Of a stretch of DNA of 17,082 nt, positions 5,073-15,748 are shown one piece after another. How positions within the stretch are numbered: position 1 is the stretch's first letter; every line of letters starts with the position of its first letter. The notes under the pieces were generated by a model. The model ran no database searches, had not been told where the DNA came from, and saw only the letters and a program-made list of their open reading frames with translations. The DNA lies in IMG/VR virus record IMGVR_UViG_2651869694_000011; one strand, written 5' to 3'. The position numbers and the translations under genes were made by a program. The stretch is from a virus (Duplodnaviria > Heunggongvirae > Uroviricota > Caudoviricetes).

Positions 5073-5130
5073 AAAAAGGGCGGCAGAGCAGTCACGGAGT
5101 AAAACTGATACCGCCAAACGTCACCAGAAA
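5073..5130 (-). ncRNA. dicF: DicF small regulatory RNA
   Basis: The reverse complement of 5073-5130 reads tttctggtgacgtttggcggtatcagttttactccgtgactgctctgccgccctttttaa, which matches the E. coli DicF sRNA sequence from memory, including the terminal hairpin and U-run. Position directly upstream of dicB is as in the Qin dicB operon. Confidence 0.8.
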
Positions 5131-11386: not shown

Positions 11387-11491
11387 ATGTCGGATGATAT
11401 TTCACTGGTAATGGAAGGCGCTCTGGCTGTTATTGCTGTTGTGGGTGTTTACTGCCTGGTTGTGTTTTTGATGGAGCGCCTGGGGAACTGA
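11387..11491 (+). CDS. Candidate small hydrophobic protein (34 aa, single predicted transmembrane helix)
   Basis: Not in the ORF track (too short). Strong SD AAGGGAGGG 3-5 nt before the ATG at 11387. Translation MSDDISLVMEGALAVIAVVGVYCLVVFLMERLGN. Candidate promoter upstream (-35 TTGCTA 11302-11307, -10 TATATG 11326-11331). Confidence 0.45.
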   Translation: MSDDISLVMEGALAVIAVVGVYCLVVFLMERLGN

Positions 11492-11531
11492 ATTCATTCC
11501 GTATGGGAATTCCCATATCGGGCAAAACGGT

Positions 11532-11559
11532 TTGCTGTAAAGCGAGAGTTAAGTAGAAT
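11532..11559 (+). promoter_or_regulatory. Candidate sigma70 promoter for the hok mRNA
   Basis: -35 TTGCTG (11532-11537), 16-bp spacer, -10 TAGAAT (11554-11559). The predicted transcript 5' end (~11563-11577) is complementary to the 3' UTR at 11940-11955. Confidence 0.4.
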
Positions 11560-11734
11560 TGCTGCGGGTGCTTGAGGCTGTCTGCCTCGGGCATGCCACC
11601 GTAAGGCAGACAGAGAAAAGCCCCAGTTAACATTACGCGTCCTGCAAGACGCTTAACATTAATCTGAGGCCCAATCTATGCTTCACAAACGTAGGTTAGC
11701 CTCTTACGCGCCGAAAGGCAAGGAGAAGCAGGTT

Positions 11735-11890
11735 ATGAAGCAGCAAAAGGCGATGTTAATCGCCCTGATCGTCATCTGTTTAACCGTCATAGTGACGGCA
11801 CTGGTAACGAGGAAAGACCTCTGCGAGGTACGAATCCGAACCGGCCAGACGGAGGTCGCTGTCTTCACAGCTTACGAACCTGAGGAGTAA
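11735..11890 (+). CDS. hokD: Hok/Gef family type I toxin (HokD/RelF-like, 51 aa)
   Basis: MKQQKAMLIALIVICLTVIVTALVTRKDLCEVRIRTGQTEVAVFTAYEPEE matches the Hok family and E. coli HokD as recalled. SD AAGGAGAAG 9 nt upstream. Track ORF 11678..11890 is an in-frame upstream extension. Confidence 0.9.
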   Translation: MKQQKAMLIALIVICLTVIVTALVTRKDLCEVRIRTGQTEVAVFTAYEPEE

Positions 11891-11958
11891 GAGACCAGGC
11901 GGGGGAGAAATCCCTCGCCACCGCTGATGTGTCAGGCATCCTCAACGCACCCGCACTT

Positions 11959-11985
11959 AACCCGCTTCGGCGGGTTTTGTTTTTT
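11959..11985 (+). terminator. Rho-independent terminator of the hok transcript
   Basis: Hairpin cccgc-ttcg-gcggg (11961-11974) followed by ttttgtttttt. Confidence 0.75.
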
Positions 11986-12057
11986 CTGGTCGTTCTGGTT
12001 TACAATCCATCCGTCAGCCTGAACAACTGGCACCTGCTGCGCCAGCAGAGAAAACAG

Positions 12058-15111: not shown

Positions 15112-15187
15112 GGCCCTTTAGCTCAGTGGTGAGAGCGAGCGACTCATAATCGCCAGGTCGCTGGTTCAAATCCAGCAAGGGCCACCA
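15112..15187 (+). tRNA. tRNA with CAU anticodon, most similar to E. coli tRNA-Ile2 (ileX/ileZ type); could alternatively be annotated tRNA-Met
   Basis: Manual cloverleaf: acceptor GGCCCTT/AAGGGCC, D-arm GCTC/GAGC, anticodon loop CTCATAA, T-loop GGTTCAAATCC, 3' CCA encoded. One A-C mismatch at the base of the anticodon stem. Confidence 0.9.
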
Positions 15188-15267: not shown

Positions 15268-15344
15268 GCGTTGTTAGCTCAGCCGGACAGAGCAATTGCC
15301 TTCTAAGCAATCGGTCACTGGTTCGAATCCAGTACAACGCACCA
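15268..15344 (+). tRNA. tRNA-Arg (anticodon UCU, reads AGA/AGG)
   Basis: Manual cloverleaf: acceptor GCGTTGT/ACAACGC, D-arm GCTC/GAGC, anticodon stem ATTGC/GCAAT with loop CTTCTAA, T-arm ACTGG-TTCGAAT-CCAGT, discriminator A plus CCA. Confidence 0.9.
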
Positions 15345-15662
15345 CACCACACTTATCTGCCCTGACTCTCTTTTGCGGGCTTTTTATTACAGGAAAGACA
15401 CCGGACAGTGAAATGTTAAATGCCTCACAATTCAGGCAGTTGACTGTTGCCTGACATGCTGAGCGTTTGTTAAAAAAATCCTGCATGATGAATCCCCCTG
15501 AGCGGCGGGGCATAATGACAGATGTTTGGTTGCGTATTGTATAGGCAAGTTGCGGATTCTGTCTGGTCATTGCAGAATTCACCGGGAGGCACCCGGCATC
15601 ATGCTGTATACAGAGATTAGGCATATATCCAGGCTTCTCATCGCAGGAGCCTTTTTACATGC

Positions 15663-15688
15663 AAAAAAAAGCCCGAGTGGGTTCGGGC
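15663..15688 (-). terminator. Rho-independent terminator oriented on the minus strand, with no annotated upstream minus-strand gene
   Basis: Plus strand shows an A8 run (15663-15670) then hairpin gcccga-gtgggt-tcgggc (15671-15688), which reads as hairpin plus U8 on the minus strand. Confidence 0.55.
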
Positions 15689-15748
15689 AACAGCATGAGA
15701 TACTTGCATTGTCATTTTTATCGTGTGGATTTTAACCAGGGTTTATAA

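Follow-up and report, generated by a model that had tools for sequence, protein, structure and literature searches.

The paradigm of its family, the hok/sok locus (parB), is carried by plasmid R1 and serves in post-segregational killing. In the model for its control, the full-length hok mRNA is closed by pairing between the translational activator element (tac) and the fold-back inhibitory element (fbi), and the upstream complementary box (ucb) sequesters the Shine-Dalgarno sequence of the mok frame (PMC9841398). Slow trimming of the 3' end then removes fbi, tac pairs with ucb and the mok Shine-Dalgarno (SDmok) pairs with a downstream complementary box (dcb), and the mRNA can from then on be translated and be targeted by the antisense Sok RNA; mutations in the last stem-loop of the truncated hok mRNA abolish toxicity (PMC9841398). 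A second described system, hokW-sokW, is carried by the Stx2 prophage Sp5 (VT2-Sakai) of E. coli O157:H7 and has been shown by experiment to encode a toxin and an RNA antitoxin (PMC8621323). HokW is toxic, mutation of the sokW -10 region unmasks that toxicity, the -10 region is needed for antitoxin activity, and sokW supplied in trans partially rescues growth (PMC8621323). The hokW and sokW RNAs are both detectable; after mitomycin C treatment sokW RNA vanishes and HokW appears in a RecA-dependent manner, and deletion of hokW-sokW halves phage release (PMC8621323).

The window analysed here, a stretch of 17,082 nucleotides, is a lambdoid (lambda-like) prophage adjoining potC in E. coli of the EHEC/EPEC (enterohaemorrhagic-type) lineage. 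Its genes run from integrase, excisionase, exonuclease, dicB with DicF, a LexA-family repressor, cro and ydaT through the replication genes O and P, several small nin-region genes, hokD, a DUF968 gene and rusA to a DUF1133 gene, tRNAs and a SASA esterase, placing the hokD locus within the nin region. An earlier note, made from the letters alone, had described positions 11532-11990 as a complete hok/sok-type locus with complementary 5' and 3' ends. That call proved accurate: a Pfam-matched toxin, a mok frame, an RF01794 leader, the tac/fbi pair and a predicted Sok gene are all present and conserved. We conclude with high confidence that the region is an intact type I toxin-antitoxin locus of the hok/sok family, representing the complete form of hokD and closely related to hokW-sokW. 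Judged from its sequence, the locus is of an already catalogued kind, an RNA-controlled toxin-antitoxin module with all the textbook regulatory RNA elements in place. Little about it is new, as hok/sok loci, tac/fbi fold-back and the abundance of such loci in pathogenic E. coli prophages are already documented; its worth is the modest one of a clean reference for an intact hokD locus, because the namesake copy in K-12 is a 5'-truncated remnant. A literature search for a described 'sokD/mokD' and for inventories of O157 hok loci found nothing specific.

The toxin gene occupies 11735-11890 on the + strand and is preceded by a Shine-Dalgarno sequence, GGAG, at 11722-11725. Its 51-aa product matched Pfam PF01848 (HOK_GEF) over the full model at 82.9 bits (cut-off 22), as a small membrane toxin of the Hok/Gef type with the usual length of about 50 aa. 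Matches to the NCBIfam Hok models all fell below their curated cut-offs (48.5 bits vs 73), so that Pfam was the decisive profile. The product is identical to HokD (RelF) of K-12, WP_000813254.1, which is annotated as HokD in O157:H7, O55:H7 and K-12 DH5alpha. Overlapping hok and in frame with it is a mok frame of 70 codons (11678-11890, + strand), which amounts to a 19-codon N-terminal extension of hok and has its own Shine-Dalgarno sequence, GAGG at 11665-11668, 9 nt upstream of the mok ATG at 11678. Translation of hok is presumably coupled to that of mok. The in-frame extension of 19 codons is kept in 26 of 41 related loci (see below) and longer in-frame extensions occur in four more; it is missing in the remaining 11, and in the R1-like plasmid locus mok lies in another frame.

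Control elements of the hok mRNA, all on the + strand, flank these frames on both sides. The predicted hok promoter (11532-11559) consists of a weak -35 hexamer, TTGCTG (11532-11537), a 16-nt spacer and a -10 hexamer, TAGAAT (11554-11559). Nearly all related loci have a -10-like hexamer (TAGAAT, TATAAT, TACAAT, TATATT or TAGTAT) at a constant distance from tac, and the sequence upstream of it is unrelated among them. A scan for consensus promoters reported neither this promoter nor that of Sok; the hok -35 escaped it because TTGCTG matches the consensus at only three of six positions. The tac element, TGCGGGTGCTTGAGG, lies at 11563-11577 and forms the 5' end of the mRNA, whose transcription start we infer to be at 11564-11566; within tac, GGG.GCTT is nearly invariant across the 41 loci. 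It is followed by a 5' stem-loop (11578-11613) that is also part of the Rfam consensus structure and consists of a 10-bp inverted repeat and its loop. The repeat (11578-11587/11604-11613), which had been noticed from the letters alone, is exact and forms the core of a 21-nt imperfect repeat.

Next in the leader is ucb, an anti-Shine-Dalgarno box with the sequence AAAGCCCC (11617-11624), recognized from its conservation and from the folds, and then the long Sok-target hairpin (11619-11672), whose arms hold both copies of TTAACATTA. The duplication of TTAACATTA had been recorded before, correctly for the first copy (11627-11635); the second copy is at 11653-11661, 3 nt away from the 11656-11664 given for it. 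As TTAACATTAA is nearly its own reverse complement, the direct repeat of TTAACATTA acts as an inverted repeat. A promoter-like site on the + strand at 11653-11682 (TTAACA-18-TATGCT) was dismissed as a chance match, being located inside the Sok-target hairpin and belonging to a class of sites whose count equalled the shuffle expectation. The dcb element, GCCTC (11699-11703), was identified from conservation, the fold of the truncated RNA and the Rfam consensus. Rfam RF01794 matched the + (hok) strand at 11566-11740 over its full length (model positions 1-157) with 114.9 bits, the gathering score being 59, and the tac/ucb stem, the Sok-target hairpin and the SDmok/dcb stem that characterize the conserved hok leader were each found. 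Downstream of hok, a GC-rich stem-loop of 9 bp (11898-11919) is present in the folds of both the full-length and the shortened RNA, and its stem is conserved in the alignment. By analogy with R1, this stem-loop is likely to form the 3' end of the processed, active mRNA, a role suggested by the effect of the R1 stem-loop mutants cited above (PMC9841398). Beyond it lie fbi, CCTCAACGCACCCGCA (11940-11955), which covaries with tac, and an intrinsic terminator of the hok transcript (11959-11986) with a 7-bp stem followed by a T-rich tail.

The central claim of the earlier note, that 11563-11577 is complementary to 11940-11955 with one bulged C, was borne out: tac and fbi can form 15 bp interrupted by the single bulged C at 11946. 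The repeat finder returned this helix as a perfect 9-nt pair (11563-11571/11947-11955) and a pair covering TTGAGG/CCTCAA, with the bulged C between them. The duplex between tac and the 3' UTR has a computed stability of -27.7 kcal/mol, whereas 3' UTRs shuffled with their dinucleotide content preserved averaged -16.7 (sd 2.4), and the fbi site is the best partner for tac on the + strand of the entire 17-kb window. Both the minimum-energy (MFE) and the centroid folds of the full-length transcript (11563-11985) pair the 5' end with the 3' end; the MFE is -180.5 kcal/mol (z = -7.97), a value reached by none of 100 shuffles. The fold thus joins tac to fbi in the manner expected of the fold-back architecture of hok mRNAs, as had been proposed. 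In this predicted closed form, GCC.CCAG (ucb) is paired with CUG.AGGC (SDmok), and the mok ribosome-binding site is sequestered. A different structure was obtained when the RNA was truncated at 11924, removing 11925-11985: GGG.GCUU (tac) is then paired with AAGCCCC (ucb), SDmok (GAGGC) with dcb (GCCUC), and the loop CUUCACAAA is complementary to the 5' tail of Sok. This MFE fold reproduces the leader stems of the Rfam RF01794 consensus, in which the SDmok/dcb pairing also appears. Minimum-energy folds are predictions, and they suggest that the mRNA would refold from a closed to an open form upon shortening of its 3' end.

Conservation of the complementarity among homologous loci, named in advance as a test of the proposal, was examined, and the proposal passed. 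Fifty-three loci encoding Hok relatives were taken from species-representative genomes, and 41 non-identical full-length loci from Escherichia, Shigella, Kluyvera, Pseudocitrobacter, Citrobacter, Photorhabdus, Pantoea, Erwinia and Kalamiella were aligned with MAFFT without reference to the tac/fbi pairing. Two loci (L035 and L045) were excluded since their tac-like match does not adjoin the hok gene that had drawn the locus in. Counts of pairs on the raw MAFFT alignment were too low in the distal half of the tac/fbi helix, where sequences lacking the bulge are displaced by one column; pairs were therefore re-derived for each sequence by running RNAduplex on the aligned segments. By this measure tac positions 4-15 are paired in 39 of the 41 loci, and the retained pairing extends over at least eight genera. 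The six pairs of the core (GGGUGC/GCACCC) are formed in 39-41 of the 41 sequences. Compensatory changes were observed at two positions. At tac position 7, U-A gives way to C-G in 10 sequences and to U-G in four; at position 15, G-C in 24 sequences alternates with A-U in 14, a compensatory exchange, and with G-U in three. Paired cells made up 80.9% in register, as opposed to 35-55% when the partners were slid by 1-3 columns, and cells changed on both sides numbered 23 in register and 0-14 when slid.

The two loci without the pairing are both damaged. In one, a hokC of the K-12 type (L015), the 3' UTR departs from those of the other loci just past the stem-loop and fbi is missing; what stands there instead is presumably the end of an IS186 element. 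The other (L047) is a frameshifted, decayed copy from Shigella. The variable tac positions (7 and 12-15) are those that the alternative tac/ucb stem places in bulges or an internal loop. The ucb sequence is unchanged in 39 of the 41 loci, all but L025, which has lost one base, and the decayed Shigella copy, and dcb is identical in 40. Variation confined to tac positions that do not pair with ucb, together with near-constancy of ucb and dcb, is what a two-state switch predicts. The predicted closure of the full-length mRNA by pairing of its ends is accompanied by covariation.

A Sok-like antisense RNA had been placed in the leader, with 11640-11740 as the interval to probe. A convergent promoter and a hairpin RNA are indeed predicted there, but in other positions. 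The predicted Sok RNA covers 11612-11686 on the minus strand, starting at about 11686, some 7 nt downstream of the -10 hexamer, with both ends inferred; it would begin with a single-stranded 5' tail (about 9 nt), continue as a long hairpin and end in a CUUUUCUCU tail. Its fold has an energy of -30.7 kcal/mol (z = -4.74), both copies of TTAACATTA fall within the arms of the hairpin, and the RNA covers the mok ATG as well as the mok Shine-Dalgarno sequence. The predicted promoter (11693-11721, minus strand) has a -35 hexamer TTGCCT (11721-11716), a 17-nt spacer and a -10 hexamer TAACCT (11698-11693). These hexamers are identical in Sp5 hokW-sokW, and hexamers and 17-nt spacer are conserved in the 41 loci. 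The primers used to build the promoter-less sokW mutant replace exactly the hexamer called the Sok -10 here, and the segment 11657-11686 differs from the sense-strand sokW probe YO-592 at five of 30 positions (PMC8621323). All parts of an antisense gene, namely promoter, 5' tail, hairpin, U-tail and overlap with the mok start, can thus be recognized in the predicted Sok. Within the leader, variability peaks at 11673-11692, the complement of the Sok 5' tail (1.2-1.3 bits, compared with 0.3-0.5 in the flanks), which fits a role of this segment as a specificity determinant among co-resident copies.

The namesake, hokD (relF) of the K-12 Qin prophage, encodes the identical 51-aa protein; an alignment to the E. 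coli hokD/sokD locus had been suggested in the earlier note. The two DNAs share 98% identity beginning at 11721, a stretch that takes in fbi and the terminator, and in both cases the gene lies in a nin region upstream of a DUF968 (ydfU-like) gene. In K-12, however, relBE stands immediately upstream and homology begins only at 11721, so that the hok promoter, tac, ucb, the Sok-target hairpin, the mok start and the Sok -10, all of which the window has, are absent. The window gene is not found directly downstream of relBE and possesses its own leader and sok; the genes are orthologous and their arrangements are different. Because the K-12 copy lacks the 5' elements that the window keeps, the window carries the intact form of the locus.

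Sp5 hokW-sokW is 92% identical to the window locus at the nucleotide level, likewise resides in a lambdoid prophage and has an in-frame mok; tac, ucb, dcb, fbi, the Sok promoter hexamers and the hok -10 are identical in the two. The differences are a few substitutions at the C-terminus of the toxin and four in the 14-nt Sok 5'-tail/target segment (11673-11686), and hokW lacks the terminator hairpin that directly follows fbi in the window. Function has been shown by experiment for hokW-sokW only, whereas the window copy is known from sequence. R1 hok/sok shares with the window locus both the succession of elements (promoter, tac, 5' hairpin, ucb, Sok-target hairpin, SDmok and mok, then dcb with the Sok promoter, hok, the 3' stem-loop and fbi) and the predicted switch between closed and open forms. 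Its toxin is about 43% identical to that of the window, its mok is in a different frame from hok, and it is borne by a plasmid, whereas the window copy belongs to a prophage. The hokC (gef)/mokC/sokC locus and other chromosomal Escherichia hok loci share the family, the architecture and the in-frame mok. Toxins of the hokC type (L014-L021) are about 80% identical to that of the window, but these loci occupy a different chromosomal site and have a shorter Sok-target hairpin; the hairpin in the window has an extra GC-rich tip of about 16-20 nt beyond the Rfam consensus and the hokC-type loci.

Three other readings of the region were weighed. The complementarity of the ends could be fortuitous, or an inverted repeat related to the terminator, leaving nothing but a small toxin gene. 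One of 2000 shuffled 3' UTRs did form an equally stable duplex with tac, and hence a single sequence would be no proof; against this stand the equivalent location of the pairing in 39 of 41 loci and its compensatory changes, the finding that both exceptions are damaged, and the position of fbi as the best tac partner in the window and the dominant one in the MFE and centroid folds. We rejected this reading, which is extremely improbable, on the basis of the shuffles, the whole-window scan and the covariation. Equally improbable is that 11566-11740 encodes the antitoxin RNA on its + strand, a reading invited by the Rfam label 'sok antitoxin' and by the orientation of the RF01794 match. The RF01794 consensus opens with tac (GGGUGCUUGAGG) and closes with the hok Shine-Dalgarno and AUG, so what the family describes is the leader of the hok mRNA, on the hok strand, and not the antisense RNA. 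In addition, the sokW probe is a sense-strand oligonucleotide, the mutations in the sokW promoter are on the other strand, and it is the minus strand that carries the conserved -35/-10 pair and the hairpin with its U-tail. The + strand candidate was discarded.

The third reading accepts the structure and denies it a role: the locus would be intact but physiologically silent, a relic that is never activated, either because the toxin is too weakly expressed or because Sok is always in excess, and that persists through its prophages. The truncated hokD of K-12 is carried at no obvious cost, and the hok promoter of the window has a weak -35. As cited in bioRxiv 10.1101/2025.08.07.668861, the intact chromosomal hokA, hokB and hokC loci have been reported to give no post-segregational killing and no response to rifampicin; integrity of sequence therefore does not guarantee an active killer. 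Constraint is nevertheless evident on all regulatory elements, including the compensatory changes in tac/fbi and the near-unchanged ucb and dcb, and is not expected of a neutral relic. Moreover, the 92%-identical hokW-sokW is active and is triggered by prophage induction, and phage release depends on it in part, as described above. We regard a silent relic as unlikely. The preferred reading, an intact hok/sok-family locus, agrees with the earlier description of the module as functional rather than decayed in one sense: nothing is disrupted, unlike in K-12 hokD, where everything 5' of 11721 is lost, and all elements are under evident constraint. Since the support is at the level of sequence, 'functional' is warranted in that sense solely; transcripts, processing, toxicity and biological role would follow by homology.

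By that homology, with plasmid R1 hok/sok and Sp5 hokW-sokW, the intact locus may work as follows. A constitutive promoter (-10 TAGAAT) would give an mRNA of about 420 nt, from about 11564-11566 to the terminator at about 11986. With tac bound to fbi in the full-length RNA, ucb would be available to mask the mok ribosome-binding site, and the RNA would hence be neither translated nor bound by Sok. Slow exonucleolytic 3' trimming to the stem-loop at 11898-11919 would strip off fbi, after which tac would pair with ucb and an SDmok-dcb hairpin would form with a loop complementary to the Sok 5' tail. In this open form mok would become translatable, hok would follow by translational coupling, and the Sok target would be created. 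Sok, a short and unstable RNA running from about 11686 to 11612 on the minus strand across the mok start, would block translation of mok and hok and trigger cleavage of the duplex by RNase III for as long as it is made; once its synthesis stopped, the 51-aa membrane toxin HokD would be produced.

The orientation of the locus allows a more speculative proposal. The hok gene shares its direction with the early rightward operon (cro, O, P, hok and a Q-like gene), and the Sok promoter faces head-on into that operon. Upon induction, strong antiterminated rightward transcription might silence the Sok promoter by interference, and Hok might then act as an auxiliary device for lysis timing or exit, the hypervariable Sok 5' tail preventing cross-protection among co-resident copies. 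We offer this tentatively and consider it rather doubtful; if true, it would explain the RecA-dependent loss of sokW RNA that the hokW-sokW study left open.

Matches to the locus are common in E. coli. A 501-bp query around it was found at 100% identity in O157:H7 chromosomes, where the identical CDS is annotated as 'type I toxin-antitoxin system toxin HokD', and 3858 of 5426 complete E. coli genomes contain a match with at least 80% query cover. Genomes with any match to the query have it at a median of two places. In phage records, the same gene appears under the labels 'host killer protein', 'MokW' and 'gef homolog'.

The most variable part of the hok leader across homologues is the segment at 11673-11692, which takes in the mok start and first codons and is complementary to the 5' tail of Sok, the predicted minus-strand antisense RNA. 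Within 11673-11686, four of 14 positions differ between the window and hokW of Sp5. Taken together, the variability of this segment and the differences from Sp5 hokW suggest copy-specific recognition by Sok where one genome carries several hok loci.

Pairing between tac (11563-11577) and fbi (11940-11955), the 5' and 3' elements of the hok mRNA, is missing in only two of the 41 aligned loci, and both of these are damaged. In the Shigella flexneri locus (L047), hok carries a frameshift and the ucb element is mutated, and the E. coli K-12-type hokC locus (L015) departs from the other loci right after the 3' stem-loop. The divergent sequence beyond that stem-loop is probably an IS186 end. An intrinsic terminator hairpin lies 3' of fbi in the window (11959-11986) and is also found in K-12 hokD, whereas the hokW locus of Sp5 (VT2-Sakai; L057), on which the experiments have been done, is without one; the 3' end of its transcript must therefore be made differently.

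Within the hok reading frame, the heptamer TTACGAA (11872-11878), which includes the Tyr47 codon TAC (11873-11875), does not vary by a single nucleotide across the 41 aligned loci, even at third codon positions. It provides the tRNA-Arg-like UACG context in which TadA edits A to I. Recoding of the corresponding Tyr to Cys has been reported for hokB, hokC, hokD, and hokE (bioRxiv 10.1101/2025.08.07.668861).

A perfect 16-bp palindrome, TATGGGAATTCCCATA, is located at 11502-11517, ∼15 nt 5' of the hok -35 element; it is common only to the closest relatives and is absent from Sp5 hokW. Directly 5' of the hok promoter is a hydrophobic 34-residue ORF (11387-11491; MSDDISLVMEGALAVIAVVGVYCLVVFLMERLGN), which is annotated in related genomes as the hypothetical protein WP_001278460.1 and gave no match in a Pfam search.

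Other RNA genes are also present in the prophage. The antisense sRNA DicF (5078-5129, minus strand; Rfam, 76.7 bits) adjoins dicB; this stretch is an immunity and cell-division-inhibitor region of the Qin type. Two tRNA genes (15112-15187 and 15268-15344), a CAT-anticodon tRNA and a tRNA-Arg(tct), come after the Q-like region; the former is called Met by ARAGORN but tRNA-Ile in the annotation of a related genome. About 100 nt or more 3' of the tRNA genes are two directly adjoining matches, the sRNA STnc100 (15454-15662, plus strand; Rfam, 175 bits) and the anti-GcvB sponge AgvB (15664-15723, minus strand), the latter only 0.6 bit over the Rfam threshold.
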